DNA from: Minisyncoccota bacterium
GTDB taxonomy: Bacteria; Patescibacteriota; Minisyncoccia; Phycocordibacterales; GWA1-40-21
Direction of reading: 5' to 3'
NCBI GenBank assembly: GCA_041664585.1
Contig: JBAYKL010000002.1
Location: 88,328 to 152,327, forward strand
DNA: 64,000 bases
Each line of letters opens with the position of its first letter. Positions within the stretch are counted from its first letter, which is position 1. The translations under genes were made by a program, and so were the position numbers. This document shows, in pieces, positions 7,616 to 31,459 of this stretch. The notes under the pieces were generated by a model. It saw only the letters and a program-made list of their open reading frames with translations, searched no databases and was not told the DNA's origin.

Positions 7616-7624
7616 TCAGACATT

Positions 7625-7655
7625 AAAAAACTGCCCAAATTTGGGCAGTTTTTTG
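7625..7655 (+). terminator. rho-independent terminator of ppdK
   Basis: CTGCCCA-aatt-TGGGCAG followed by TTTTTT. Confidence 0.8.
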
Positions 7656-7671
7656 ATTATTTAATCACATA

Positions 7672-7700
7672 TTGACAAAAAGACGACAAAGAGTTAGTAT
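7672..7700 (+). promoter_or_regulatory. sigma-70-like promoter (TTGACA, 17-nt spacer, TAGTAT) driving the structured RNA
   Basis: TTGACA at 7672-7677 and TAGTAT at 7695-7700. No ORF with an SD follows. A GC-enriched structured segment follows instead. Confidence 0.55.
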
Positions 7701-7705
7701 TATAA

Positions 7706-7890
7706 GTGGAGCTGTGATATTTCTGTTCTGTGGGATCAGGTCCTTAGTCTCCACCGGCAAAACCTACCGGTTGAAACCCTCGTTACCTGTCCTCTGTACG
7801 GAGAACCTGCGGACAAGATATCACAGCTCCACCCACTTTGTTCTTTTGTCGGACTTTCACCCGTTGCTACTTACTGCAGCGGGTTTTTTA
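7706..7890 (+). ncRNA. candidate structured non-coding RNA of unassigned class (a riboswitch-like leader cannot be excluded)
   Basis: A perfect 15-bp closing helix (GTGGAGCTGTGATAT 7706-7720 with ATATCACAGCTCCAC 7818-7832) encloses a multi-stem core. Sub-helices include ACCGG-caaaaccta-CCGGT and TCTCC/GGAGA, and a CGGCAAAACC segment. A 20-nt linker and an intrinsic terminator follow (CCCGTTGC-tacttact-GCAGCGGG-TTTTTT, 7860-7889). GC content is locally elevated relative to the flanks. Confidence 0.45.
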
Positions 7891-7941
7891 TTTCCCAAAA
7901 AGAGTTATAATTAACCCGTTATTAGTTAATATCATAAAATT

Positions 7942-8220
7942 ATGGGATTATTTTGGACAGATGCAAAACCAAGGGTTACAGAGATTGAATTTCATAAAGT
8001 AAGAGCGGAACTTGCTGGGGATAATTTTACTGAAAAAGAAAGAGATCGAATCGAAGAAATATTTCGTGCAGATTTATATGAAGAAAAAGAGAAAGATAAA
8101 GGAATAGATGAACAAGAAATAGACAAAGGAGTTGCTTGGATGAGAGAACACGTAAGCGAACATCATATATCACTAGAAAAGATAGATATTCTGGAAAAAA
8201 AGCTAAAAGCTAGACTATAA
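7942..8220 (+). CDS. hypothetical acidic protein
   Basis: 92 aa, E/K-rich (EKERDRIEEIFRADLYEEKEKDKGIDEQEIDKG), with no recognisable motif. It is followed by its own terminator. Confidence 0.45.
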   Translation: MGLFWTDAKPRVTEIEFHKVRAELAGDNFTEKERDRIEEIFRADLYEEKEKDKGIDEQEIDKGVAWMREHVSEHHISLEKIDILEKKLKARL

Positions 8221-8227
8221 ATATCAC

Positions 8228-8260
8228 AAAAAGGACCTCTTTATAAGAGGTCCTTTTTGT
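8228..8260 (+). terminator. rho-independent terminator
   Basis: AGGACCTCTT-tat-AAGAGGTCCT followed by TTTTT. Confidence 0.8.
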
Positions 8261-8302
8261 GATATGCTCTTTGCGGATAAGTAAACCAGGAAGGAGAATA
8301 AT

Positions 8303-8647
8303 ATGGGTAATGTGGTTGATAATCTGAAGGAAAGATTTGAAAACAGAAAAGTAAAAGCAATTGTCGGAAATTTAGATTTTTTTAGGCTTCTTCAAGAATG
8401 CTTAAATGCAAAGGAAAGTACAGATGAAGAAAAACATCTGAAAAAGATAGCCTACGAAAATCTAAAAAAGACTTGTCTTACTCTGGACCCGAAAGACGTC
8501 CGGGTTTTACTAGCATACATACAAGTACCTAGAAGCCACCCCATTAGCAATATTCTAAAGGAAGCGGTTTCTAGATCGGATCTAACCTACGAAGAATGGT
8601 GTTGGGCAGTTAGTCAGACATTTTTCACAGATGGTCCCAAAAAATAA
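8303..8647 (+). CDS. hypothetical protein
   Basis: 114 aa, preceded by AGGAAGGAG 8 nt upstream. No recognisable family. Confidence 0.5.
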   Translation: MGNVVDNLKERFENRKVKAIVGNLDFFRLLQECLNAKESTDEEKHLKKIAYENLKKTCLTLDPKDVRVLLAYIQVPRSHPISNILKEAVSRSDLTYEEWCWAVSQTFFTDGPKK

Positions 8648-8685
8648 AATCCCCTCGCGTTAAAATGCTTGGGGATTTTTCTTTT
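8645..8685. terminator. possible bidirectional terminator between the 8303 ORF and ackA
   Basis: AATCCCC ... GGGGATT with a 16-nt loop, followed by TTTTTCTTTTTT. The long loop lowers confidence. Confidence 0.4.
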
Positions 8686-8690
8686 TTATT

Positions 8691-9869
8691 TTATGCAATA
8701 AATTCTCTAGTCTCTCTTGCAATCTGTGTCATCTCGTCTGTCTTCACAACTTTTATTTTTATCTTTGATTCTGGAGTAGAAATTACAGCATCCACATTGT
8801 CAGTAGCATTATTTTTATTTTTGTCTAAGACAAAACCCAAACCTTCAAGATTACCCAGTATTCTTTCTCTCATTTTAAATGATCTCTCCCCTACTGTTCC
8901 AGAAAAAACTAATATATCTAGTCCGCCAAGAGCTGCCATATAAGCACCTATCTGTTTTTGAATTTTATAAGCATAAATATCTAATGCATTTTTTGCATCC
9001 ATATTTTCATTTTCTGCTTTCAAAAGTTCTCTAACATCATCACTCAGGCCAGCAGACAAACCAAGAAGTCCACATTTTTTATTTAAATACTGTTTTAATT
9101 TGTCGCCATTTAATCCCAAAACTTCAGATATATATATGAGAGCACCAGAATCTATATCACCCACTCTTGTAGCCATAATCATCCCCTCGAGAGGTGTAAA
9201 GCCCATTGTTGTATCAACACTTTTACCATCTTTAACAGCCGTAATACTTACTCCGCCACCAATATGACAGATAATTATTTTCTCTGAGAGAGAATTTTCT
9301 GCTTTAAGCTTATTTACTATAGAACCAAGAGAAATACCATGATATCCATATCTATATATCTCATGTTTTTTTGCATCATTTAAATTAATACCATAAAGTT
9401 TAGACTTAACTGGCATACTCTTGTGAAAAGTACTGTCTGATATACCAATAACAGGAACTTTATTCTTAAATATTTTTATCAATTTATTTATTTCTTCTGA
9501 TATCGCTTCCACATGAAGTGGAGCTTTTTTACCAGCCTCCTTCATATGCTTAAGAAATTGTTTGTCTATCAAACAATTGTCTTCAAAATAAACACCCGGA
9601 GCTACAGTTCTCACACCGATTCCATTGATATCATTTATAGATGAAATAAAAGCTTTTTTAATTAGGATATTTAGAAGATAATCTATGGCTTTATCAAAAT
9701 CATTTTTCGTAATTTGAGATTTTTCTGAACCAGTATCTTGTTTGAGAGTGACAATAAAGCCATTGCCTTCTTTTTCAAAATGAAAGAAAGCCTGTTCTTT
9801 ATCCCCTACGTAAAAAGCATACTTCTTAGATGCGCTACCTGTATTTACAATTAAATATTTTTTGTCCAT
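8691..9869 (-). CDS. ackA: acetate kinase
   Basis: MDKKYLIVNTGSASKKYAF is the ASKHA N-terminal motif of acetate kinases. It also has ...HIGGGVSITAV... and the EGMIMATRVGDID segment. Confidence 0.9.
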   Translation of the reverse strand: MDKKYLIVNTGSASKKYAFYVGDKEQAFFHFEKEGNGFIVTLKQDTGSEKSQITKNDFDKAIDYLLNILIKKAFISSINDINGIGVRTVAPGVYFEDNCLIDKQFLKHMKEAGKKAPLHVEAISEEINKLIKIFKNKVPVIGISDSTFHKSMPVKSKLYGINLNDAKKHEIYRYGYHGISLGSIVNKLKAENSLSEKIIICHIGGGVSITAVKDGKSVDTTMGFTPLEGMIMATRVGDIDSGALIYISEVLGLNGDKLKQYLNKKCGLLGLSAGLSDDVRELLKAENENMDAKNALDIYAYKIQKQIGAYMAALGGLDILVFSGTVGERSFKMRERILGNLEGLGFVLDKNKNNATDNVDAVISTPESKIKIKVVKTDEMTQIARETREFIA

Positions 9870-12220
9870 TTCCAGTTTTCTATTTCTAAAGGATCTACAC
9901 CATTTTGTTTTATATAGTCCAGATGGTCTTTAGTTTTTTGCTTATAAATTTCTATCACTCTTGTCGCTTTACTTTCTTCTACAGCTTTATTCTCTACAAG
10001 TTTCTCCAGAGCTTCAATTAATAAAGTGTATCTATCTGTCTTATTTCTTACATGAAGGTCAAAAGGTGTCGTCGTTGAGCCGCTTTCCATATATCCGTGA
10101 ACGGTGAATCTATTATTGGCAGACTGATAATCAAAAAGTGATTGTTTTAATGTCTCAGGATATCCATGAAAATTAAATATTACCGGTTTATCTTTTGTAA
10201 AATATTCTTCAAACTTTTCTTCACTCATTTTTGTAATTGAGCTACCAATAGTATTCGGTGATAGTTCTACAATATTCACAAACCTTGCTTTTACTTCTGG
10301 AATTTCTTTTTTCAATAAATCAATTCCTGCTAAAGCTTCTTTTATAAGGTACTGTCCACAAGCTGAAAAAACAATATCTGGATTTTCTTCACTCGCAAAA
10401 TCCCAAATAGATAAACCGCTTCCAATTTCTTTTTTTGATTGATCCAAAGACAACCAAACTGGTTCAGGAGTTTTTTCTGCAACAATAATATTTATTTCAT
10501 TTAATGAATTTAAAGATTTTTTAATAATCTCTAATGATTCATTTGCATCTGCTGGGAAAAATACATTTATAAACTCATTATGCTTTTGTAAAAGCCCATC
10601 TATAAATCCAGGATTCTGGTGTGAAAAGCCATTGTGTTCCTGACGCCATCCTGAGGAAGTAATAAGATATGTGAAAGAAGGAATATCTCCACGCCATTCT
10701 GTCTTTCTGGCAATCTTCAAAAACTTACTATACTGATCTGCCATACTAGAAACTATAGGTATGAAGGCTTCGTATGAATCAAATATAGCGAACCTTCCAG
10801 TAAGAGCGTAGCCCTGCGCAAGACCCTGCATAGAATGTTCCGAGAGCATTTCTATTACTCTACCGTCCCTAGCCATATCTGTATCCCATTTTTCTATTGG
10901 ACCAGCCAAAGCTCTTTTTGTAACATTAAATATATCTTGGAGTCTATTTGAGTAAGTTTCATCTGGAGAAAAAAGTCTAATATTTCTCTTTTCTTCATTG
11001 AGTTTCATCGTCTCAGAAATATAGGCTCCGATTTTTCTCATAGAACTTACTTGTGTATCACCTGGTAAATCTACTCTTACAGAGAAGTCCTCTGTTTTGG
11101 GTAAAACAAGCTTTCTCTCTGTATCACCTTTTCTAATACCAAAAACTTTTTGATTATCTCCCATCTTTAATTCTTCATTTGGAACAAGATTTAAAATATC
11201 TTCTGAGAAACCTTTTTTCTCATCAAAGATTTCATTAAATCTGTAAGATTTCATCCATTTAGACACAGCATCGAGCTCTATTTGATTTGTTTTTGCATCT
11301 TTACCAACCACCTGATGTGAAAGACAATTTCCCTCTATCTTTTGTCCTTCTAATTCCTTAATACCAGTCCAACCTTTTGGAGTTTTTAGTACAAGCATCG
11401 GGAATCTAGCAAAATATTGATATGGTTTGCTTTTCTGACTTCTAGCTTTTTTCTGAATTTTAATTATTGAAGCATGAGCCTTTTTCAATGCGACAATCAT
11501 TTGTTTATAAACCTTATCATCACTACCTTCTACAATAATGGGATCATATCCGTATCCAGTAAACAAAGCTTTCAAATCTGTATTTGTCATTCTTCCAAAA
11601 ATTGTCGGGCCAGAAATTTTATAACCATTTAAATGAAGTATCGGTAGCACTGCTCCGTTTTTTGCGGGATCAACAAACTTATTTAAATGCCACGATGTAG
11701 CTAGTGGGCCAGTCTCCGCCTCACCATCACCCACTAGGCATGCCGCAATGAGATTCGGATTATCAAGTACGGCACCATAAGCTGTAGAAAGAGAATATCC
11801 AAGTTCTCCACCTTCAAGTATTACTCCAGGAGTGGCTGGACTTGCATGACTTGGAAAACCATACGGCCAACTAAATTGTTTAGAAATATATGCAATTCCC
11901 TTTTCATCTCTCGTAGCATCTTTATAATATTTGGAAAGAGTATCTTCTAAAAATACGTTCGCCTGAAGTGCGGGGAAACCATGTCCCGGACCAAGCAAAA
12001 ATATCATTTCTGCATTTGTTTTTTTTATAAGATTATTTAGACAGGCATAGACAAAATTAATACCAGGACAGCTACCCCAATGCCCTAGAAGTCTAGGTTT
12101 AATATCATCAAAAGAAAGCTTGTTTTTTAATAAAAAATTATTTTGTAAATATATTTGAGATACTGTTAGATAATTTGTAGCTCTTACATATTTTTTAAGG
12201 CTCTCTATTTCTTTGCTCAT
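9851..12220 (-). CDS. xfp: xylulose-5-phosphate/fructose-6-phosphate phosphoketolase
   Basis: 789 aa with the TPP-enzyme motifs GHWGSCPG...GPGHG and ...GDGEAETG. Its length and layout fit the Xfp family. It overlaps ackA by 19 nt. Confidence 0.9.
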   Translation of the reverse strand: MSKEIESLKKYVRATNYLTVSQIYLQNNFLLKNKLSFDDIKPRLLGHWGSCPGINFVYACLNNLIKKTNAEMIFLLGPGHGFPALQANVFLEDTLSKYYKDATRDEKGIAYISKQFSWPYGFPSHASPATPGVILEGGELGYSLSTAYGAVLDNPNLIAACLVGDGEAETGPLATSWHLNKFVDPAKNGAVLPILHLNGYKISGPTIFGRMTNTDLKALFTGYGYDPIIVEGSDDKVYKQMIVALKKAHASIIKIQKKARSQKSKPYQYFARFPMLVLKTPKGWTGIKELEGQKIEGNCLSHQVVGKDAKTNQIELDAVSKWMKSYRFNEIFDEKKGFSEDILNLVPNEELKMGDNQKVFGIRKGDTERKLVLPKTEDFSVRVDLPGDTQVSSMRKIGAYISETMKLNEEKRNIRLFSPDETYSNRLQDIFNVTKRALAGPIEKWDTDMARDGRVIEMLSEHSMQGLAQGYALTGRFAIFDSYEAFIPIVSSMADQYSKFLKIARKTEWRGDIPSFTYLITSSGWRQEHNGFSHQNPGFIDGLLQKHNEFINVFFPADANESLEIIKKSLNSLNEINIIVAEKTPEPVWLSLDQSKKEIGSGLSIWDFASEENPDIVFSACGQYLIKEALAGIDLLKKEIPEVKARFVNIVELSPNTIGSSITKMSEEKFEEYFTKDKPVIFNFHGYPETLKQSLFDYQSANNRFTVHGYMESGSTTTPFDLHVRNKTDRYTLLIEALEKLVENKAVEESKATRVIEIYKQKTKDHLDYIKQNGVDPLEIENWKWTKNI

Positions 12221-18869: not shown

Positions 18870-20969
18870 TTATTGTATTATAATACTACCAATTCCTCCA
18901 TTATATAGTCCAGAAATTTCTTCCTGAGATAAAGCTCTACTCCATACTCCAACTTCATCTATAAGACCACTGAAGTAATACTGACTAGAACCTTTTGCCC
19001 CAATCAAAAACTCTTCAGACATATCCCTAATAGTACCATTATAAGAAACCGGCATGCCAACCATATTCCCATCTATATAAGTACTAATATTTGATCCGTT
19101 TGCTACTGCAACCAAATGATACCACCTATTTAGTTCTGGCACCCAAGAATAATCCGTAATTTTTACAGTATTATCCTGTTGAAAAATAAAAAATCTTAGA
19201 GTATTACCGCTCATCAAGTAAAATGAGAAATTCCTAGAGCTACCGTTGTCTTCTCCGAGAACATAGCAAGAGCTTACTCCACCACAATTCAAAGAACTAA
19301 AATTAACCCAGGTAGACATACTCAACTTCCCTGAGGTTTTTGTAATTCTTTGGCTTGTAGAGGCGTAATCACCATTTCCATCAAGAACCATAGCATTGCC
19401 CAAAATACTAGAAACATCTGATATATGAGCGTCTCCATTATACACACCATCATTGTTTGACACGGACAAATCATTCGCCGCTAAAGGTTTATTACCGTAA
19501 GCTAAAGATCCAACACCGCTATTACAATGTTCAGTATTATTAACAGAATCGGCTAAACATCCAGTAGATGTCGGCGTGAAATTTCTAACAAAAACACTAT
19601 TTTGTTTTATGTATAAATTCCTATAGAAAAACTGATCATAAAAATTCGCACTTCTTCTATCAGTTCCTACTAATAAACTATTACTATCTAATTTACCAAA
19701 AGTTCCAGAAAATGCTTTTGTCAGTGAGACGGTTTCTTTTTCCGTAACCACAGACATAGTTTTCGTTGATCCATTGTATAAATAGTGTACATCATAAACA
19801 ATACCATCATTATAAGTTTGACTTGTTAATAAATCCCCTATTAATCCATTACTATCAGCCAAATAAAAACGTAATTTTCCAGCCTGTGAATTAAGTTCAA
19901 GACTTATGGTACCTGCGGCCGTACCATTATAATTACCTAGAAGAACTAGTCTTCCAGTTTCTTTTGTCGAGAACTGAAGAAATATTTCAAAGTCTTCGTC
20001 AATACTATTCTGTCCAACAACACCTGTATTTATATAATCGTCTACACCATCAAAAATTAAACCCGGTTCTTCTGTCCCAGCATCAGTATCAAAATTCCAA
20101 TAACCCATCAGTCTTGATGTAAGAAGAGGATCTTCACAAATATTTCCTGACGAACAATATTCTGACACACATTCAGAATCTAATGTACAAGAGGTTCCTG
20201 GCTCGCCGCTTACACAAAGATTAGTAGCCAAACTGCAAATACCAGACATACAACTTGATCCCGTAGCACAGTAATCAACCCCTGTCTCTCCATTAGTACA
20301 CAATTGTGTAATCTGATTTGAGTCCCAACCACAATACCCAGCAGGACAATCAGAGTTTGTAGTACAACTTCCACCTAAATTGTATATACCAGTTGTTCCT
20401 AGATATGATACTCCAGTTCTTATGGTAGATGATGAGAGGTTAGTAGAGAAGCTGACTAGTGCGTCATATATTTGAGTAGTGGTATACATGGAGGCTACAG
20501 GAGTAATTGCAAAAGAATGTGAACCTGCTGTAGTGGTAGCGTTATTAGTTATAAGATTATATATGTTTTCTAGAGTATAGCCTTGTACTCCTGGTGCTTC
20601 GGTTGGGAAAAGAGAAGAATATGTTGGTGTTACTGTTGCATAGTTTGGATCTAAAGTTCCATAATTACCAGTTACACCTAATATAGTAATACCTGTTTTT
20701 ACATCTTCTTGTTTTACTAGATTAGCTAATAAAGCATATATTTCACTTGTTGAATGAGAGGTGGTTGCTGTGGGAGAAGAGGATGTAGAAATTGGAGAAT
20801 CCGGTGTTGGTTTTAATACATTGTATGAAATAAAATCATATATATCACCTAAAGAATGATAAGTAGAAGAAGGCAAGGATTCTGGAGAAAGTTTAGAAAT
20901 AGAAAAAACAGATAAAAACACAACAAAAAATAATCCCGTTATCAAAAAAATTAACCGTCTGATCCTCAT
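18870..20969 (-). CDS. secreted LamG (concanavalin-A-like lectin) domain protein with a Cys-rich module
   Basis: N-terminal TM/signal segment. Two LamG-like beta-sandwich regions (...LIFDGVDDYINTG...LLVGTD and ...MVLDGNGDYAST...LIGAKG...GLIDEVGVW). A central Cys-rich stretch (CTTNSDCPAGYCGWD...CVSEYCSSGNICE) lies between them. Confidence 0.7.
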   Translation of the reverse strand: MRIRRLIFLITGLFFVVFLSVFSISKLSPESLPSSTYHSLGDIYDFISYNVLKPTPDSPISTSSSPTATTSHSTSEIYALLANLVKQEDVKTGITILGVTGNYGTLDPNYATVTPTYSSLFPTEAPGVQGYTLENIYNLITNNATTTAGSHSFAITPVASMYTTTQIYDALVSFSTNLSSSTIRTGVSYLGTTGIYNLGGSCTTNSDCPAGYCGWDSNQITQLCTNGETGVDYCATGSSCMSGICSLATNLCVSGEPGTSCTLDSECVSEYCSSGNICEDPLLTSRLMGYWNFDTDAGTEEPGLIFDGVDDYINTGVVGQNSIDEDFEIFLQFSTKETGRLVLLGNYNGTAAGTISLELNSQAGKLRFYLADSNGLIGDLLTSQTYNDGIVYDVHYLYNGSTKTMSVVTEKETVSLTKAFSGTFGKLDSNSLLVGTDRRSANFYDQFFYRNLYIKQNSVFVRNFTPTSTGCLADSVNNTEHCNSGVGSLAYGNKPLAANDLSVSNNDGVYNGDAHISDVSSILGNAMVLDGNGDYASTSQRITKTSGKLSMSTWVNFSSLNCGGVSSCYVLGEDNGSSRNFSFYLMSGNTLRFFIFQQDNTVKITDYSWVPELNRWYHLVAVANGSNISTYIDGNMVGMPVSYNGTIRDMSEEFLIGAKGSSQYYFSGLIDEVGVWSRALSQEEISGLYNGGIGSIIIQ

Positions 20970-21241: not shown

Positions 21242-23032
21242 ATGGAACAAGAGAAATTAATGAGAATGAGACACTCGCTCGCCCATCTACTTGGTGCAGC
21301 GGTTTTAGAAATCTGGCCAGATGTGAAAATTGCTACTGGTCCTGCAATAGACAATGGTTTTTACTATGACTTTGATTTTAATTCTCCTATAGTAGAAAAA
21401 GATTTAGGAAAGATAGAACAGAAGATGAGAGAGCTAGTAAAAAAGTGGAACGGCTTTGAGAAAAAAAATATTTCATATGAAGAAGGTAAAAAGCTTTTTG
21501 CTGGTAATCCATACAAACTAGAACTTATAGAGGAATACAATAAAGATGGTAAAGAACTTAGTATTTATACTTCTGGTAATTTTACAGACCTTTGTGCAGG
21601 ACCACATATAGATGATATTAAAGAAATAAAAGCAGATGCATTCAAACTAGATAGAATTGCTGGGGCATATTGGAAAGGTGATGAAAAGAATAAAATGCTT
21701 ACAAGAATATATGCACTGGCTTTCGCTTCAAAAGAAGATTTAGAAAATTATTTGAAGCAAAGAGAGGAAGCAGAAAAAAGAGATCACAGAAAAATTGGAA
21801 AGGAATTAGATTTATTCCATATGGATGAAAAAGTGGGTTTAGGTCTACCTTTATGGCATCCTAAAGGTGCTATTCTCTGGAGAGTAATCGAAGACTTCTG
21901 GTATCAGGAACACCTTAAAAACGGTTACGATTTGGTCAGAAGCCCACACATAGGTAATAAGGAACTTTGGGAGATATCTGGACACTGGGGATTCTATAAC
22001 TCAAGTATGTATCCTCCACTTGAAGCGGGGCAAACACTTAAAGAAAAACAAGAAGGTAAAAAAATAGAACACTCTGAGGAGTATCTATTGAAGCCGATGA
22101 ACTGTCCTTTCCACGTACAAATATATAAAAACTCACCAAAATCATACAGACAATTCCCTTTTAGATGGGCTGAGTGCGGTACTGTATATAGATTCGAAAA
22201 GAAAGGAGAATTATCTGGACTAACCAGAGTCAGAGGATTTACACAAGATGATGCTCATATTCTTTGTAGAAAAGATCAAATAGAAGAAGAACTCAAAATG
22301 GTTATAGATTTTATATTGTTTATATATAAATCATTTGGTTTTGATATAAATTCAGTAAAGGTCTTCCTATCTCTCAGAGATCCAGAAAACAAAGAGAAAT
22401 ACGCTGGTAATGATGAGGGTTGGAATTACACAGAAGAAGTTCTAAGAAAAGTTGCCGTAGAAAAGAAACTAGATTTCACCGAAGAAAAAGGAGAAGCTGC
22501 ATTCTATGGACCAAAATTAGACTTTAAGATAAAAGATGCTCTAGGTAGACTTTGGCAATGTTCAACACTTCAATTTGATTTTAATCTTCCAGAAAGATTT
22601 GATCTTACTTTTGTAAACTCAAAAGGAGAACAAGAAAGACCATATATGCTTCATAGAGCCCTTTTTGGAAGCTTCGAAAGATTCATTGGTCTATTAATCG
22701 AACACTACGCTGGAGCCTTTCCACTGTGGCTTGCACCAGTACAAATAAAAATTGTACCAGTAAGAGAAAATCACAACGACTATGCTAAGAAAATTGGTGA
22801 CGAGTTAAAGAAAGATGGATTCAGAGTGGATTGTGATTTAAACCCTGGAAACATGGGTGGGAAAGTAAGAGATGCAAAAAATAATAGAGTTCCATATACA
22901 ATTATCGTCGGAGATAAAGATATGTCAGTAAACAAAATAACCGTAGAAAATAGAGATAAGGGTCAACTTGGACAAATGGATTTGAAAGACTTTATTGAAA
23001 AAATCAAAGAAGAAAAAGAAAAGAAATTATAA
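21242..23032 (+). CDS. thrS: threonyl-tRNA synthetase, without an N-terminal TGS domain
   Basis: Begins at the second additional domain (HSLAHLLGAAV...) with the Zn-binding editing motifs. It has a class II core (...RVRGFTQDDAHI..., FYGPKLDF) and a C-terminal anticodon-binding domain. 596 aa. Confidence 0.93.
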   Translation: MEQEKLMRMRHSLAHLLGAAVLEIWPDVKIATGPAIDNGFYYDFDFNSPIVEKDLGKIEQKMRELVKKWNGFEKKNISYEEGKKLFAGNPYKLELIEEYNKDGKELSIYTSGNFTDLCAGPHIDDIKEIKADAFKLDRIAGAYWKGDEKNKMLTRIYALAFASKEDLENYLKQREEAEKRDHRKIGKELDLFHMDEKVGLGLPLWHPKGAILWRVIEDFWYQEHLKNGYDLVRSPHIGNKELWEISGHWGFYNSSMYPPLEAGQTLKEKQEGKKIEHSEEYLLKPMNCPFHVQIYKNSPKSYRQFPFRWAECGTVYRFEKKGELSGLTRVRGFTQDDAHILCRKDQIEEELKMVIDFILFIYKSFGFDINSVKVFLSLRDPENKEKYAGNDEGWNYTEEVLRKVAVEKKLDFTEEKGEAAFYGPKLDFKIKDALGRLWQCSTLQFDFNLPERFDLTFVNSKGEQERPYMLHRALFGSFERFIGLLIEHYAGAFPLWLAPVQIKIVPVRENHNDYAKKIGDELKKDGFRVDCDLNPGNMGGKVRDAKNNRVPYTIIVGDKDMSVNKITVENRDKGQLGQMDLKDFIEKIKEEKEKKL

Positions 23033-23033
23033 T

Positions 23034-23066
23034 AAAAAAGCCAGCACTAAGTGCTGGCTTTTTTAT
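23034..23066. terminator. bidirectional terminator
   Basis: AAAAAA-GCCAGCAC-taa-GTGCTGGC-TTTTTT. Confidence 0.85.
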
Positions 23067-24193
23067 TATATATATTTTTCTAAATCACCTTCTGAGATTG
23101 TAATCCACTCTCCTTGAGAATTTGTTTTTGAAGAAGCAACATTCCTAATAGTTTCAGAGATGTTTGTGTCATTCAATCTCTTTGCTTTCAAAAGATTAAT
23201 AACAGCTCCTTGTGAAATAATTATATTATTCATTCTTGCGTAGTCTTCGATTTGAGACATCGCTTTAGTGTCAGCATGAACCTCAGTAGATATTACATTT
23301 TCTGAAGCTATAACTACAGGTACTTCCTGTGCTTCTTTCTTCTTTAATAGAAAGTATGCAATTGTCGTGCTCCAAAGTATCAAGCTTAGAGTAAACAATA
23401 CAACCTTCATAGTATCACCGGCTCCAGTATATGGCACATCGCTTAGGTAAACAGAAGCTACATAAGGGTTAGTTTGAGTATATGCGAGAACCTGATTTAC
23501 GTTTACAGTACAAGTTCTTGTAATACTTTGACCGTTAGATACGATTGTAAGGTTAGCAGTCTTTGTACCACCAGTGTTGTATGTCTTTGGTGCTGTTTGA
23601 CCGTTTGAAGAGAGACCTTCGTCTCCTGTCCAGTAATATGTGTAAAAACCGTTACCTCCTGTGGCACTAGCTGTCCAAGTGACAACGCCACCAACTTCTG
23701 TATTTGATACGCCTGCAGCACAAGAACCGTTTAGTGAGCTATAGTTGTTGTAGGTGTAGTTATAACCATTGTTATAGTTCCAGCCGCTATTACCTCCATT
23801 GTCATAATATGAGTTCGGACCATAGACATTACCGTTTGTAGAGTTCCAACCACCACAAGTCGTAGTCGCGTTACATCCACAAGACCCACAAGAAGAAGTA
23901 TCCCAATAGTTGTGACCCCCGCCATAGTTACCATGTGAATAATAATCATTGTAATGGTAATAATCATTATCCCAATCCATATCTATATGCCAGTCTTCAA
24001 CTTCATCCTCTATGTGATCCCAAGCACTAGCGGATACATCTGAAACATCATCCCAAGCGTCTTCGAAGAAATTTCCCAAACGACTCCATACATCAGCATG
24101 AGCATAAGTTGGTACAGAAAATACAAAAACAGACAATAGAGAAATCGCTGTTACGACAAAAGCTTTTTTGCTTGTATTTATAATGTTTTTCAT
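23066..24193 (-). CDS. secreted PKD-like domain protein with an internal sortase-type sorting signal (VPYTG + TM + KKK) and an extra C-terminal domain
   Basis: Signal peptide, then a D/Y/N/G-rich low-complexity region. A Cys-bounded PKD-like module follows (TWTASATGGNGFYTYYWTG...TANLTIVSNGQSITRTCTVNV). Then comes ...SDVPYTGAGDTMKVVLFTLSLILWSTTIAYFLLKKKEAQ, followed by about 90 further residues. It lies immediately downstream of the sortase on the same strand with no terminator between them. Confidence 0.6.
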   Translation of the reverse strand: MKNIINTSKKAFVVTAISLLSVFVFSVPTYAHADVWSRLGNFFEDAWDDVSDVSASAWDHIEDEVEDWHIDMDWDNDYYHYNDYYSHGNYGGGHNYWDTSSCGSCGCNATTTCGGWNSTNGNVYGPNSYYDNGGNSGWNYNNGYNYTYNNYSSLNGSCAAGVSNTEVGGVVTWTASATGGNGFYTYYWTGDEGLSSNGQTAPKTYNTGGTKTANLTIVSNGQSITRTCTVNVNQVLAYTQTNPYVASVYLSDVPYTGAGDTMKVVLFTLSLILWSTTIAYFLLKKKEAQEVPVVIASENVISTEVHADTKAMSQIEDYARMNNIIISQGAVINLLKAKRLNDTNISETIRNVASSKTNSQGEWITISEGDLEKYI

Positions 24194-24294
24194 ATAATTT
24201 TTATTAAATTAACTTAATCACTATTATATACCAAAAGAATATAAAAGTCAAGGCTATGAACCCTTTCAAAATGGAGATGTCTAAATATGGCTTT

Positions 24295-24909
24295 TTATAA
24301 AGCTTTTTTAGCGACGTATTCAGCTTCTACTACATACCTATCACTTTTAGCCCCAAAAGTATCACAAGTAGAAAGCGTAAGCTTATGAACTTTGGTATTA
24401 AATACAACGAGAGCCTTGTCTGCCCCTTCCAACTTTACAGAAGTAACTTTATAGGAAAAAATATTACTATTTGAATACACATCTATCAAATCCCCCTCTT
24501 TCAGATCCTTTAAACCATTGAATGCTTTGAAGCCTTGGTTATTTACAACAGCAAGACGAGTATTATGACCAAAAATAAAGATGTTTCCGTAACCAAGATT
24601 CCCAGAACCTGGATAATGCACTGCTCCTTTAGCTAAAAAACTATCAAGAACTTCCGTACTAGTACTTTGCGGATTATAAACTTGAACATCAATGTTTATA
24701 CCAGGAACCTTTATGACCAGTGGGATTTCAGCATTTTCTTTTTGAAAAGAATTATTTTCTGGATATCTGCCATAGGAGACTTTGAACTCTTCTGGTACAA
24801 AACCAAAAAAATACAACATGCCAAATGTAATAAATAGTATAATGGAAAAATTCAATAAGAATGACCATTTTCTACCCTTTATAAAACTTAAAAAGCTTTC
24901 TTTTTTCAT
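24295..24909 (-). CDS. sortase family transpeptidase
   Basis: N-terminal TM anchor, a conserved His in IFIFGHNTRLA, the catalytic TLxTC motif (LTLSTCD), and an Arg in SDRYVVEAEYV. Confidence 0.8.
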   Translation of the reverse strand: MKKESFLSFIKGRKWSFLLNFSIILFITFGMLYFFGFVPEEFKVSYGRYPENNSFQKENAEIPLVIKVPGINIDVQVYNPQSTSTEVLDSFLAKGAVHYPGSGNLGYGNIFIFGHNTRLAVVNNQGFKAFNGLKDLKEGDLIDVYSNSNIFSYKVTSVKLEGADKALVVFNTKVHKLTLSTCDTFGAKSDRYVVEAEYVAKKAL

Positions 24910-24997
24910 AAATATGTTATCTATATTAACAGCTTGACAATAAAAGTCAACTACTGTATAATACTATCTAGCTTAGAAGTTTAATTATATCATTATT

Positions 24998-26314
24998 ATG
25001 AAAGAAAAAATCTGGTTAAAAATTAAAGAATCTTTTTCAACGGCAGCAATAGCAGCTCTTATGCTTGTTATTGTTTTTTTGCTTATCTGGATACCTTTCA
25101 AATTCATCCCGGGTATCTTTTCTAAGGGTACAAATTATGTAGCAACTTCCCTATCCTCAACTTTTATACCTGGAGAAAATAAAGCAACGACTTCTCCAAC
25201 AAAAAATAATACCCAGCCTACAAACACAACTGTGGCTGGAGGCAAACCAGATCTCTCTGTGAGGCTTATAAGTACTGGTATCATAAATAGATATACAAAA
25301 CAATTTTCTCAAACAAGTACAATAGGTACCGGAGATGAAGTTGGGATGAGATTTGAAGTCAAAAATATTGGGAATACAGTTTCTGGAGCCTGGAGTCTAA
25401 AGGCAACTTTGCCATCTGCAACAACTCCTAATTACAATTCTGACCTACAGAGATCGTTGAATCCTGGAGACAGAATAGAATTTACTCTTGGTTTTGATAA
25501 TCCAACAAATTTAGGACTAGTCACTGCCTATGTATACGCTGATCCAGCTAATACTATTGGCGAGTCTAACGAATCAAACAATTCAATCGGTGTCCCATTT
25601 AATATAGTAAGTGGTTCAACCTATGGTTACAACTACGGGACCACTTATAACAATGCGATAGGGACAACATATACATGGACTTCCATTGTTGGAGCATGTA
25701 GTGCCCTTCCGGGAACCGTATATACAGGAACCCTAGTAAACTGGAATGCCAGTGCAACAGGCGGTAACGGATACTTCACATATTCTTGGAATGGATCTGA
25801 TAATCTTGTAAGTACGGAAAAAAATCCTACAAAAATTTACTACACGGCTGGTGTAAAAACAGGAACTGTTACGATAACATCAAACGGTTCAAGTGTTACA
25901 AAACAGTGTACTGTAAATGTCGTTGATCAATATAATAACTACAATACAAGTTCTTCTGATCTTTCCCTATCATTAGTTGGTGTTGGCTCAGTAGATAATA
26001 GCGGACAGTTTATACAAAGTTCTCAAGTTTCGAGAGGTGGAAATATCGCGATTAAAGTAAGGATTACCAATGTAGGGACAAGCTACTCTGGCAACTGGAC
26101 TATCACAGGATCAGTATCTCCTTCTCTTCCGGGATATACTTATAGACAAGATAATCAAGTATCTCTAGCCCCAAATTCAACTTCAGATTACACAATGGTA
26201 TTCTGGAATCCACAGACTTCAGGAGACAATGCATTCAATATTCAGATTAGCCAAAGTGGAAACGACTTAAATAGTACAAATAATAATTTAACAGCAACAG
26301 TAAGAGTTTACTAA
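24998..26314 (+). CDS. membrane-anchored CARDB / PKD-like / CARDB surface protein
   Basis: N-terminal TM anchor. Two CARDB-type modules (...GDEVGMRFEVKNIGNTVSGAW...ESNESNN and ...IAIKVRITNVGTSYSGNW...STNNN). Between them a PKD-like module (NWNASATGGNGYFTYSWNGSD...TVTITSNGSSVTKQCTVNV) is clearly homologous to the one in the 23066..24193 protein. Confidence 0.65.
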   Translation: MKEKIWLKIKESFSTAAIAALMLVIVFLLIWIPFKFIPGIFSKGTNYVATSLSSTFIPGENKATTSPTKNNTQPTNTTVAGGKPDLSVRLISTGIINRYTKQFSQTSTIGTGDEVGMRFEVKNIGNTVSGAWSLKATLPSATTPNYNSDLQRSLNPGDRIEFTLGFDNPTNLGLVTAYVYADPANTIGESNESNNSIGVPFNIVSGSTYGYNYGTTYNNAIGTTYTWTSIVGACSALPGTVYTGTLVNWNASATGGNGYFTYSWNGSDNLVSTEKNPTKIYYTAGVKTGTVTITSNGSSVTKQCTVNVVDQYNNYNTSSSDLSLSLVGVGSVDNSGQFIQSSQVSRGGNIAIKVRITNVGTSYSGNWTITGSVSPSLPGYTYRQDNQVSLAPNSTSDYTMVFWNPQTSGDNAFNIQISQSGNDLNSTNNNLTATVRVY

Positions 26315-28514: not shown

Positions 28515-29102
28515 TTATACTTTTTCTACAAAAATAGCCAGCTTTTTCCAACTCTTTTTGAAATCAGAAATATTAACAAACTTATTCTTACCGTCTGCAT
28601 CAGATTTTGCTTCTGGATCGTTAATATATAATCCCTTTATAACATCCCCACACTCCTCAATCCCAGATACCACAACCATATGTCCAGAAGTTCTTGGGTT
28701 ATTTATATCCTTAGCTAGAGAGACTAGTACTGGTAATCCAGCTTTTATGTTACTAATTATTTTATTGATTCCAAAATCTAAAAGATTTTCTGAATGATCT
28801 AAATTCTTAAATTCTTGTCTGTAAGAAGGAATGTTATTATTTCTCAAAAGAATTACGAGTAGTTCGTGTCCCCAACCATATTGTTCAGTGTATCCATCAT
28901 GAACTCTATCTCTTTTTTCTAATTCTTTTGAAATTAAGAGACCTTCCTTTACTAAATCTCTAGTTTCGGTTTTTATTCCAAAATAATCTAATACCATTTT
29001 TACACAAACAATAGCACAAACTTTTGTTTGCCAAATATTTTCTATTTCTTCAGAATATTGAGAATAAAAAGGTATATCCAATTTCATTATCTTACTTGCC
29101 AA
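28515..29102 (-). CDS. C39-like (Peptidase_C39_2 / BtrH-like) papain-fold cysteine peptidase, cytosolic
   Basis: DIPFYSQ...KVCAIVCVKMVL (Cys), ...GHMVVVSG (His) and ...YINDP (Asp) follow the C39-like family pattern. There is no signal peptide. It overlaps the pheT stop by 16 nt. Confidence 0.6.
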   Translation of the reverse strand: MASKIMKLDIPFYSQYSEEIENIWQTKVCAIVCVKMVLDYFGIKTETRDLVKEGLLISKELEKRDRVHDGYTEQYGWGHELLVILLRNNNIPSYRQEFKNLDHSENLLDFGINKIISNIKAGLPVLVSLAKDINNPRTSGHMVVVSGIEECGDVIKGLYINDPEAKSDADGKNKFVNISDFKKSWKKLAIFVEKV

Positions 29103-31459
29103 CCATTATTAGCGTTCATTTTATCTGTAATCTTTTGCATTATAGAATTTACTTCATCGTCAGTAAGAGTTCTCTCATAGGATTGAAATATCAAACGATA
29201 CGCGTAAGAAGTTTTTGAAGAGCCATCTTCAAATTTCTTAGTAAAGACATCGAACAATCTATTTTTAATCATAAGATCACCAGCTTCTTTTGAAATAATT
29301 TCAAATACTTCTTCTGATTTTGTACCTTCTGGGGTAAACACAGCAATATCTCTTATCATAAAAGGATACTGAGATATTTTTTTAAATCTTTTTGTTTTAT
29401 CCCCTACTTCAGAAAAATCATATTCTTTCGTATCGCTATCTATTTCTGACATTATTTTATCCCATTCATATTCAGCAATATTTTCTTCTTTATTTATCTT
29501 AGACAAGCTTACACCCAAGACTTCAGAAATTGCTTTTCCTGCCTCATTTAATAAATCAGCCTCTTTTGGTTTTTTAACCCCCAAAGGATTTTTTACACCG
29601 ATAGCCAATCTTTGAGATTCACCATCTTTAGTGAATACATGTCCAAATTCAAATATCTTTATCTGAGACATTTCTACAAGTTCATTATATCTCACATTAA
29701 ATTCTAAAGAATCTTTAATTCCATCTGTAAGATTTGTTCTTAAATACTTTCTTTCTGAGGACATTGGGTTCTCAAGTTCTATTTCCCCACTATTTCTAAA
29801 AGAATAATTTATAACTTCGGAAAAACCCAAATCATACAAAATTCGTCTTACCTTTTCTTTATAGTAGAAATCTTTATTGACCACCGCATTAACACTTTCA
29901 TTTGGTAAGGCAACATTTGTTATTTTGTCATAACCATATATTCTACCTATGTCTTCGGCCAAATCTTCTTTAATTCTCAAATCTAATCTTTCATCTGGTA
30001 CAGTAATAACAAATCTTTCTTCCCCATCGGTCATTCTTCTATAACCAACAATATTTTTGAATCTCTCAGCTTTATCTAAATCTCCAACAACTACTTTTCC
30101 AAATAGTTCGGTTGTGTAGATAACTTTTCCATCACCTATATATATGCCAACATGATCTACGCCATGTTCTGCTTTCGTACCAGGAAGAAAATTTATTGTC
30201 TCATAATGAATATTACCAACGCCAGTATTTGAGAAAATCATGTCTCCTGGTATAAGTTCTCCTTTTGAGATTTCCTTTCCAAAAACAAATTGATCTATTG
30301 AAACGCGAGGAATCTGAACTCCCGCTCTAGAAAAACAATACAAGGCAAAACCCGAACAATCAAATGAGTTCGGCGCCTCATAAGTGATACTTGAACCTTT
30401 TTTATAAGGAACACCAATCAAAAAATTAGCAACTTCTAAAACCTTTTCAACAGGTTTTACTTTCTCATATTCAAAACCAAATTTATTAAAAATCTCTTCT
30501 ATATCTTTATCTGTGATATTTACACCAATAATAGAGCTCGCCTCTTTAGAAGAAATACCAAGTTTATATTTATTTGCTCTCCTTGGATAATTATCAAAAA
30601 CTTCTCCTACTTTTGTATCCGGAGTACCGGCAATTTCTACAATAACTTTTGTGAGAACATCCATCGCTTCCCCCGCCATTTCTGCAGCATAGTCATTTTC
30701 ATATCTCTTTGATGCATCTGTTTGGATCCTTAATCTTTGAGATGTTTTTCTTACAAGCACAGGATCAAAACTTGCTGATTCAAGTACTATATTTTTTGTA
30801 TTCTCATCAAGCTCCGCGTATGTTCCACCCTTAATACCAGCTATAGCCAAAGGATTTGAGCCGTCTGTAATGAGTAAAACATTTTCGTCTAAATCAACCT
30901 CCTTTTTATCAAGTGTAGTGATGTGATCTCCTAATTTTGCTTTTTGTACACTAATCAAAATATTTTCCTTAGCAAGTTTATCTGCATCAAAAGCATGCAT
31001 CGGCTGGCCAATCTCAAACATCACAAAATTTGTAGCGTCTACTACATTATTTATAGATCTCTGCCCTATCGCTTCTATTCTTTCTTTAAGCCAATCTGGA
31101 GATTCATGTACCAAGACATTTTCAACAACTCTTCCTATGTATCTTCTACAAAGTTTTTCGTCTTCTATTTTTACATCCAACTTTTTTAAAGTCTGAAAAA
31201 TTTGAAAATCTTTTAGTTCTCTAGAATTCTTTTTTACTTTTAATCCAAATATCGCCCCGACTTCTTTAGCTATACCTCTATGACACAAACAACTGTGATT
31301 TAAATTCGGCAATACCTTAACATCAAAAATCTGATCGTCTCCTTTTGATTCAATACCCTCGACTTCCAAAGAATGCATGGTAAGACCATCTGCAATTTTA
31401 TTTACATCTGGTAGGTTATTATCAAAAAAGTTTTTGAGCCAATTATAGGAAATAATCAT
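29087..31459 (-). CDS. pheT: phenylalanyl-tRNA synthetase beta subunit with an NlpC/P60 domain inserted in the B5 domain and no B2 (OB-fold) domain
   Basis: B1 domain (MIISYNWLKNFF), B3/B4 (CRRYIGRVVENV...QPMHAFDADKL), B5 first half (KLGISSKEASSIIGVNITDKDIEEIFNKFGFEYEK), and B5 second half (RFVITVPDERLDLRIKEDLAEDIGRIYGYD). The B6/7 catalytic-like and C-terminal FDX-like domains are present. About 145 inserted residues (around 336-482) carry NlpC/P60 motifs: FDCSGF, PGDMIFS and HVGIYIGDGKVIY. Confidence 0.9.
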   Translation of the reverse strand: MIISYNWLKNFFDNNLPDVNKIADGLTMHSLEVEGIESKGDDQIFDVKVLPNLNHSCLCHRGIAKEVGAIFGLKVKKNSRELKDFQIFQTLKKLDVKIEDEKLCRRYIGRVVENVLVHESPDWLKERIEAIGQRSINNVVDATNFVMFEIGQPMHAFDADKLAKENILISVQKAKLGDHITTLDKKEVDLDENVLLITDGSNPLAIAGIKGGTYAELDENTKNIVLESASFDPVLVRKTSQRLRIQTDASKRYENDYAAEMAGEAMDVLTKVIVEIAGTPDTKVGEVFDNYPRRANKYKLGISSKEASSIIGVNITDKDIEEIFNKFGFEYEKVKPVEKVLEVANFLIGVPYKKGSSITYEAPNSFDCSGFALYCFSRAGVQIPRVSIDQFVFGKEISKGELIPGDMIFSNTGVGNIHYETINFLPGTKAEHGVDHVGIYIGDGKVIYTTELFGKVVVGDLDKAERFKNIVGYRRMTDGEERFVITVPDERLDLRIKEDLAEDIGRIYGYDKITNVALPNESVNAVVNKDFYYKEKVRRILYDLGFSEVINYSFRNSGEIELENPMSSERKYLRTNLTDGIKDSLEFNVRYNELVEMSQIKIFEFGHVFTKDGESQRLAIGVKNPLGVKKPKEADLLNEAGKAISEVLGVSLSKINKEENIAEYEWDKIMSEIDSDTKEYDFSEVGDKTKRFKKISQYPFMIRDIAVFTPEGTKSEEVFEIISKEAGDLMIKNRLFDVFTKKFEDGSSKTSYAYRLIFQSYERTLTDDEVNSIMQKITDKMNANNGWQVR

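Follow-up and report, generated by a model that had tools for sequence, protein, structure and literature searches.

Can a sortase substrate carry its sorting signal internally, with a folded domain following on the cytoplasmic side of the membrane? The question is raised by a locus of three open reading frames (ORFs) at positions 23066-26314 of a 64,000-nucleotide stretch of a Minisyncoccota genome (contig JBAYKL010000002.1 of assembly GCA_041664585.1; G+C ~34%), the whole of which is referred to here as the window. The locus encodes a sortase, a secreted protein whose LPXTG-like signal is followed by a long C-terminal extension, and a divergently transcribed transmembrane (TM) protein with a match to CARDB. 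We consider it probable that the three genes form a cassette, of a type characteristic of Parcubacteria/Paceibacteria, that pairs a dedicated sortase with its substrate; the sorting signal would be of a new, extended kind, and its cleavage would leave a membrane-tethered, clamp-loader-like stub. The three genes are as follows.

23066-24193, minus strand: substrate gene, 375 amino acids (ORF, supported by the full-length homologue P0007 at 80% identity and by L006 at 87% identity)
24295-24909, minus strand: sortase gene, 204 amino acids (Pfam Sortase)
24998-26314, plus strand: TM-CARDB gene, 438 amino acids, divergent from the sortase (Pfam CARDB, E 5e-12)

The sortase

The enzyme is a genuine sortase with a TLSTC active site, as the initial annotation had recognized. 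It matches Pfam Sortase (PF04203) at E 9.6e-22, with 77.5 bits against a cut-off of 26.6, and its FGHN, TLSTC and SDRYVV segments stand in register with those that carry the catalytic His, Cys and Arg of B. anthracis SrtA (2kw8; GHN, LITC and SKRYVV). Class A enzymes such as SrtA are the closest relatives of the window sortase in the PDB, at only E 1.8e-9. Each of the three catalytic residues is conserved in at least 90% of 51 aligned cassette sortases, which form a tight family marked by the segments LD..LL.GAVRYPGSG, FGHS, LTLSTCNTFG and R.VV.A.

Residues 15-37 of the sortase: N-terminal TM or hydrophobic anchor
24562-24573, minus strand: catalytic His in FGHN
24364-24378, minus strand: catalytic Cys in TLSTC
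24328-24345, minus strand: catalytic Arg in SDRYVV

The label "housekeeping-type" first given to this enzyme is unjustified, because the sole NCBIfam sortase model that it passes is the generic one (TIGR01076 sortase_fam, 39.8 bits against a cut-off of 39.35), while the class-specific models lie far under their cut-offs: 41.8 bits of 140 for SrtD, 39.4 of 165 for class D, 33.1 of 160 for class C, 30.6 of 160 for class E and 20.6 of 158 for class GN. Class assignment by profile was thus carried out as had been advised, and no class A-F model was reached; the enzyme looks like a dedicated sortase whose cognate target is encoded next to it.

The substrate and its internal signal

The substrate starts with a Sec-type signal peptide, and its homologues start with one of the same kind. 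An acidic region and a low-complexity region rich in N, G and Y follow, then a Cys-bounded module, a short stalk, the sorting motif, a TM helix and the C-terminal extension.

24095-24193, minus strand: Sec-type signal peptide, residues 1-33 (basic N-region, hydrophobic core, AxA-like site, PTYAHA/DV)
23498-23725, minus strand: Cys-bounded PKD-like module, residues 157-232, 47% identical to residues 233-308 of the CARDB protein
23423-23452, minus strand: extended sorting motif VYLSDVPYTG, residues 248-257
23423-23437, minus strand: LPXTG-like pentapeptide VPYTG, residues 253-257
23336-23410, minus strand: TM helix MKVVLFTLSLILWSTTIAYFLL, residues 262-283, and stop-transfer KKK, residues 284-286 (hydrophobicity scan; AlphaFold2 helix)
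23261-23335, minus strand: variable, probably flexible cytoplasmic linker, residues 287-311
23069-23260, minus strand: AAA+ lid-like (clamp-loader domain II-like) tail domain, predicted cytoplasmic, residues 312-375

The pentapeptide, the hydrophobic span and the basic residues are present in the canonical order. VPYTG had been singled out as the only LPXTG-like element of the protein, and a scan of the 64-kb window agrees, finding no other [LIVM]PxTG followed by a hydrophobic segment in a plausible gene. The extension, first put at about 90 residues, counts 89 after KKK, so that the signal of the window protein does not have the extreme C-terminal placement of a sorting signal. Neither TIGR01167 nor Gram_pos_anchor matches the window substrate, and Pfam and NCBIfam are without a model for the motif, for the tail or for a second tail domain that is found in some relatives.

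A family-wide motif and three classes of tail

An exhaustive search of 1.84 billion cluster representatives, with E up to 1e-3, returned 1578 matches, the majority of which are attributable to the repeated PKD-like module. Motif and tail were surveyed in the best 150 of these 1578 representatives together with six earlier homologues, 156 proteins in all. Word-indexed protein searches with a profile of the tail, or of motif, TM helix and tail, gave almost no matches, so the picture of the family rests on the exhaustive search and on a scan of genomes. When the C-terminal 143 residues serve as the query, the homologues conserve the motif and the region after the helix alike.

The motif followed by a hydrophobic segment is present in ~95 of the 156 proteins. 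Among 178 unique members, its logo reads V (90%), Y (80%), L (97%), S (83%), Q or D (85%), V or I (94%) and P, then Y (86%), T (97%) and G (96%). It is followed by x-x-D-x-x-K, by a helix in which F, L, W-S and A-Y recur at conserved places, and by [KR][RK]K, giving for these Patescibacteria proteins the consensus VYLSQ[VI]PYTG..D..K-TM-[KR][RK]K. Three proteins missed by the first motif pattern (P0081, P0099 and P0085) have YLTQIPYTG or YLNQVPYTG. Tail-bearing homologues that had lost PYTG were looked for, as a possible refutation of the signal, and all keep it except one outlier, P0051, which has LPDVG.

By the number of residues after the motif, the family falls into three classes: 31-66, about 90-175 (the class of the window protein) and 265-370. 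About 30 of the ~95 motif-bearing proteins end with the module, their motif being followed by just 31-66 residues, as in the classical layout of a sorting signal. One such short-tailed relative, P0043, gives a sub-threshold but in-register match to the LPXTG_anchor model TIGR01167 (10.4 bits against 15.9). Some tails of 55-64 residues (P0073, P0111, P0067, P0115, P0148 and others) end in a conserved basic (E/A)FKRxNLxRKG, which may be a different, short cytoplasmic signal after the TM helix.

Of the 156 proteins, 58, with long-tailed ones among them, share a ~60-residue domain with the window's tail, as judged by a hidden Markov model (HMM) built from that tail, and P0007 (377 amino acids) aligns with the window substrate from end to end at 80% identity. 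The single-ORF architecture recurs in dozens of clusters at 50% identity and in ~40 loci. The suspicion that a frameshift or a fusion had joined a separate gene to the substrate was raised at the outset; it is ruled out by the full-length alignment with P0007 and by this recurrence, together with the presence of the tail domain in more than a third of the proteins surveyed. The folded part of the extension is therefore a conserved region and no assembly artefact, while the linker before it differs among homologues in both length and sequence.

The C-terminal module (stalk, motif, TM helix and tail) is joined to very different ectodomains, in proteins of ~230 to ~1500 amino acids, with one to many PKD-like repeats, Tyr-rich repeats or DUF11/isopeptide domains. 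Because the module sits on such different ectodomains, the tail appears to belong to sorting or anchoring rather than to ligand binding.

Linkage of the sortase and substrate genes

A profile of motif, TM helix and tail was run against one genome for each of 185,579 species and gave 79 loci. The relatives of the window locus are all Patescibacteria metagenome-assembled genomes (MAGs); the 79 loci lie in Parcubacteria-type MAGs (Paceibacteria, Taylor-, Kaiser- and Campbellbacteria), with one 2-kb contig binned as Bacteroidia. The genome of one homologue, L005 (GCA_043817175.1), was deposited as "Nanoarchaeota archaeon"; given that TsaE, PolA and trigger factor of bacterial type are encoded on its contig, this label is probably wrong.

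Searching all ORFs of these loci iteratively with the window sortase turns up a sortase in 52 of them; in every case its gene lies upstream of the PYTG gene and shares its strand. Sixty-four loci have enough upstream DNA to be assessed, and in 51 of these a sortase gene lies within 6 kb upstream: 24 of 24 with long tails, 13 of 20 with mid-length tails and 14 of 20 with short tails. The linkage, together with the near-invariance of the module across the family, bears out the view that VPYTG, the helix and KKK form a sorting-type module.

The mid-tail copies without an adjacent sortase form a syntenic group that adjoins a PilB/T2SSE-type ATPase, TsaE and PolA. Four MAGs have two copies, of which only one is linked to a sortase (L013/L015, L031/L037, L017/L033 and L049/L070), a pattern that fits one sortase serving several substrates. 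In the unlinked paralogue that combines PYTG with the lid-like tail (L004, 1841-4881; L008, L012 and L016, ~7500-10400), Tyr-rich repeats replace the PKD-like modules; the gene is always divergent from the PilB/T2SSE-type ATPase gene, after which come a small TM protein, TsaE and PolA. In high-G+C Kaiserbacteria-like loci, a gene for a membrane-anchored protein of 380-580 amino acids lies between the sortase and PYTG genes (L058, 6973-8730; L071, 7420-8580; L084, 827-2557) and may be a fourth member of the cassette in that lineage.

A probable clamp-loader-type lid in the predicted cytoplasmic tail

The last 131 residues of the substrate were modelled with AlphaFold2 from a 24-sequence alignment. 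The model has a long TM helix (model residues 14-45), a low-confidence linker and then a confident domain of roughly 65 residues with a predicted local distance difference test score (pLDDT) above 90; only one stretch early in the linker, residues 48-54 of the model (292-298 of the protein), scores below 50. The predicted topology, helix-strand-helix-helix-strand-helix, includes the helix-strand-helix-helix-strand order of the AAA+ lid fold, and fold comparison suggests likeness also to Hda, RFC, tau/gamma, the Lon alpha-subdomain and DnaA domain III.

In sequence, a profile of 31 tails weakly matches the lid domains of RFC4 and RFC5 among PDB entries (E 4e-4 to 8e-4), and also RFC3 and RuvBL2. 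Among curated models, holA matches weakly on the lid of P0139 (E 1.3e-3) and dnaX on both domains of P0027 (E 0.025, profile positions 176-339), each far below its cut-off; DNA_pol3_delta_C gives a weak match at E 0.06, and Pfam AAA_lid_RFC1 matches a single member (0.0026). Since sequence similarity is weak, the proposed homology to clamp loaders rests mainly on predicted structure.

In AAA+ terms, the setting of the domain is unusual. The substrate protein has no P-loop ATPase core, its lid coming instead after a TM helix and a linker, and the GDLRKA sensor-2 position of RFC aligns to variable residues of the tail, with no conserved sensor-2 arginine. In 1.2 Mb of related loci plus the window, the tail domain is found only downstream of PYTG-TM, and no protein has the lid-like tail without PYTG, apart from a frameshifted fragment in L042.

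In long-tailed relatives, the lid is followed by a second conserved helical domain of ~105 residues. A model of the two domains together (pLDDT 86.8, predicted template modelling score 0.72) finds fold matches in B. subtilis delta (13.0), delta' (11.8), RFC5 (10.9), archaeal RFCS (10.7), E. coli delta (9.2, over 141 residues) and a C-terminal fragment of MgsA-type ATPases (9.0). The likeness of the second domain to a collar (domain III) is suggested by this fold comparison only; when PDB sequences were searched with profiles of the second domain or of both domains together, nothing meaningful came up beyond the RFC5 lid. As modelled, the window tail is a clamp-loader-type domain II, and the long tails are domains II and III, never accompanied by the ATPase domain.

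The second domain occupies the C-terminal 105 amino acids of the PYTG proteins of L020, L027, L029, L038, L041, L045 and L058-L084, with the pattern F..WL..GD....F..LR.L...G..V..F......LD..YR.R, which has no Pfam or PDB sequence match. In ~20 loci, this domain is present and the lid HMM does not score.

The CARDB protein and the transcription signals

The divergent gene encodes an N-terminally anchored protein, as first described, with an N-terminal TM segment ahead of its CARDB match. Besides the window, 44 related loci have a CARDB gene divergent from the sortase, so that the cassette recurs in the order CARDB, sortase, substrate, as expected of the lineage-specific system that had been suggested.

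25043-25120, plus strand: TM segment of the CARDB protein, part of the core conserved across the cassette
25247-25606, plus strand: first CARDB domain, part of the same conserved core
25694-25921, plus strand: PKD-like module, lineage-specific and common to the substrate

The substrate and the CARDB protein were said to share one Cys-bounded module, and they do so in this lineage (47% identity over 100 amino acids, E 1e-20), but the sharing is local and not cassette-wide; conservation of the CARDB protein across the cassette is limited to the TM segment and the first CARDB domain. The family to which the module had been assigned also needs tempering: it resembles PKD, but Pfam PKD_4 (PF18911) gives 18.6 bits (E 0.002) for the substrate module and 26.1 bits for that of the CARDB protein, both under the cut-off of 27. 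Judged by these profiles, it may be called at most "PKD-like".

Only 101 nt separate the sortase gene from the substrate gene. The regulatory elements of the locus, all of them recognized from sequence, are these.

24223-24251, minus strand: promoter-like TTGACT-17-TATAAT in the sortase-substrate gap, 11 of 12 consensus positions (consensus match only)
24934-24962, plus strand: promoter-like TTGACA-17-TATAAT in the divergent intergenic region 5' of the CARDB gene, 12 of 12 (consensus match only)
23028-23070, both strands: bidirectional terminator-like hairpin with a 20-pair stem and T-runs on both strands, which closes the substrate gene and the convergent thrS

The initial annotation took the sortase and substrate genes to be co-transcribed. 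A shared transcript is possible but not assured: the gap holds a promoter-like site, and a scan of it finds no terminator-like site.

Proposed processing of the substrate and alternative explanations

We propose the following sequence of events. Sec would export the precursor until the TM helix and KKK halted it in the membrane; the lid domain would then face the cytoplasm, a placement predicted because there is a single TM helix and the positive-inside rule applies. On the outer side of the membrane, the sortase would cut VPYTG between T and G, at a site that lies within SDVPYTGAGDTMK; the peptide stretch VYLSDVPYTGAGD is the predicted recognition and cleavage segment. The ectodomain would be transferred to the wall (lipid II) or to another nucleophile, and a membrane-tethered cytoplasmic stub, G-AGDTMK-TM-KKK-linker-lid, would be left behind.

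Among proteins of the clamp-loader clade, domain II makes packing contacts with partners, and oligomerization takes place through a collar formed by domain III. Because the tail has no catalytic residues and such lid and collar domains mediate contacts in that clade, its role is most likely, by analogy, docking or oligomerization on the cytoplasmic face, where it could cluster or position precursors for sorting. It could also persist as a cytoplasmic record of the processed substrate. There is a precedent for the sensing of a sortase membrane remnant in S. gordonii (SGO_1180, as cited in PMC11326707). The tail must be dispensable for the basic system, because many family members have no tail domain.

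Several observations weigh against this model. No sortase is found within 6 kb in 13 of the 64 assessable loci; the TM helix (F, L, WS, AY) varies less than is usual in sorting signals, which could suggest a permanent membrane protein; no curated LPXTG-anchor model, whether TIGR01167, Gram_pos_anchor or another in NCBIfam or Pfam, recognizes the signal; and in sequence the tail is no more than weakly similar to clamp-loader lids, at E 1e-3 to 1e-4 at best. In addition, the docking or oligomerization role would be carried over from lid and collar domains elsewhere, and we infer both T-G cleavage and the function of the tail by analogy with known systems.

The first three of these observations would suit a permanent type I membrane receptor or adhesin that is never cleaved, in which VYLSDVPYTG would be a conserved element next to the membrane, serving as a stalk or as a site recognized by something other than a sortase, and ectodomain, TM helix and lid tail would together link an outside ligand to a cytoplasmic partner. 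Such a receptor would keep its folded cytoplasmic domain, and the unlinked mid-tail copies next to a PilB/T2SSE-type ATPase would find a place in it. We nevertheless hold this explanation to be rather unlikely: a sortase gene lies immediately upstream in 51 of 64 loci and in all tail classes, many relatives have motif and TM helix at the extreme C-terminus, in the layout of a classical substrate, the invariant residues P, T and G are those that a sortase needs, and unlinked copies share their MAGs with a linked one.

If the protein is cleaved, the sortase could ligate it to another protein rather than to the wall, either to its TM-CARDB neighbour or to further copies of itself, giving a membrane-anchored heterodimer or a short pilus-like fibre. 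Class C sortases build pilus-like fibres. Conservation of the TM-CARDB gene beside the sortase in 44 related loci would fit such a partnership, as would the module that the two proteins have in common in this lineage, and the long-tailed P0139 matches DUF11 and RrgB-type isopeptide domains, which are typical of pilins. The sortase itself speaks otherwise, with a class C score of 33.1 bits against 160 and no DPW-type lid motif visible upstream of the catalytic His. The CARDB alignment, searched for a possible transpeptidation acceptor, has no position where Lys is conserved at 60% or more, and no pilin motif was identified in the substrate, which was not searched systematically for one. On balance, protein-to-protein ligation seems improbable.

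The preferred model of a cleaved substrate and a stub retained in the membrane can be extended towards signalling, at the price of much lower confidence. In one form, which we regard as highly speculative and very unlikely, sortase processing would double as a transmembrane signal: the retained or released mimic of domain II, or of domains II and III, would dock on the clamp loader of the replisome or on another AAA+ machine, so that in these minimal epibiotic bacteria the building of the surface, or attachment to a host, would be tied to DNA replication or the cell cycle. Regulated proteolysis, in which an intramembrane protease would cut the TM helix after the sortase and release the domain as a signal to an AAA+ or replisome partner, could draw on the conserved TM residues as a protease or recognition determinant, on the fact that an ATPase-less module of this type can act only through partners, and on the sensing of sortase remnants in streptococci (PMC11326707), but it is wholly inferential, the cassette holds no protease gene and many family members are tail-less, which makes it very unlikely.

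Other genes in the window

Three further genes on the minus strand deserve mention. At 18870-20969 lies a gene for a secreted protein of 699 amino acids with Cys-rich repeats and two LamG/concanavalin-like domains (Laminin_G_3, E 3.9e-27), which is probably another surface protein, without the PYTG signal. The PheT protein encoded at 29087-31459 (phenylalanyl-tRNA synthetase beta, 790 amino acids) contains an NlpC/P60 cysteine-peptidase domain at residues 349-471 (E 4.5e-14; FDCSGF...VDHVGIY), an insertion flanked by the B3_4 domain and a truncated B5 domain, and the same insertion is seen in the syntenic PheT of L001 and L002. Between gyrB and pheT, at 28515-29102, a gene encodes a Peptidase_C39_2-like (papain-fold) protein of 195 amino acids with no attached ABC transporter, which is kept at the same place in L001.

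Significance

Parcubacteria live attached to other cells, and a signal that marks their surface proteins would be of interest to researchers working on sortases and on the cell surface of the Candidate Phyla Radiation (CPR). Sortases are enriched in the CPR (PMC6744442), and the literature searched does not describe the substrates of CPR sortases or their signals. The motif VYLSQ[VI]PYTG offers a recognition pattern for an inventory of the Parcubacteria surface proteome, the conserved three-gene cassette is a testable unit, and the motif may widen the sortase toolbox for protein ligation. The family would consist of sortase substrates whose predicted membrane remnant carries a folded domain of the clamp-loader clade, outside the classical definition of a sorting signal. 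Should the tail have a partner, sortase substrates could be two-sided, which would suggest a path leading straight from the assembly of the surface into the cytoplasm.

Comparison with known systems

The cassette resembles the known LPXTG/sortase pairs, both those with class A housekeeping enzymes and dedicated pairs such as the "marine sortase" (TIGR03784, NCBIfam). The order of elements is alike, from signal peptide and ectodomain to P-x-T-G pentapeptide, hydrophobic helix and basic residues, and here too a membrane-anchored Cys transpeptidase with a His/Cys/Arg triad is encoded alongside its target. It differs in that the motif is a ten-residue VYLS[QD][VI]PYTG, with V or I in place of L and a fixed Tyr, that the TM helix is itself conserved, that 89 residues including a folded domain follow the stop-transfer signal in place of the usual few charged residues, and that TIGR01167 and all sortase class models fail to match. 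On its sequence, the signal is thus set apart from the curated LPXTG-anchor family by the unmatched model, by its placement away from the extreme C-terminus and by its distinct ten-residue consensus. The literature searched contains no description of the motif, of the cassette or of a sortase substrate with a folded cytoplasmic domain.

Compared with clamp-loader subunits (pol III delta, delta' and tau/gamma; RFC; MgsA/RarA), the tail is without domain I, the P-loop ATPase: what comes before its lid is a TM helix with a linker, and the domain forms the C-terminal end of a secreted surface protein. Where RFC has its GDxR(K)A sensor-2 position, the tail shows variable residues. According to the models, it is an AAA+ lid fold without the context that defines a lid, namely an ATPase core and a sensor-2 arginine. 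Stand-alone lid-like domains are known at the N-terminus of the B subunits of DNA polymerases epsilon, alpha and D (2v6z, 2keb and 2kxe), at ~7-14% identity to the tail; those are soluble replication proteins of eukaryotes and archaea, and a function in common with the tail is not supported.

The closest parallel in concept is the SGO_1180 two-component system of S. gordonii, in which a membrane fragment left after sortase action informs the cell (as cited in PMC11326707). In streptococci, the remnant is made of just a TM helix and a short charged tail, sensed by a separate kinase, whereas the remnant predicted for the Parcubacteria cassette would itself carry a folded domain.

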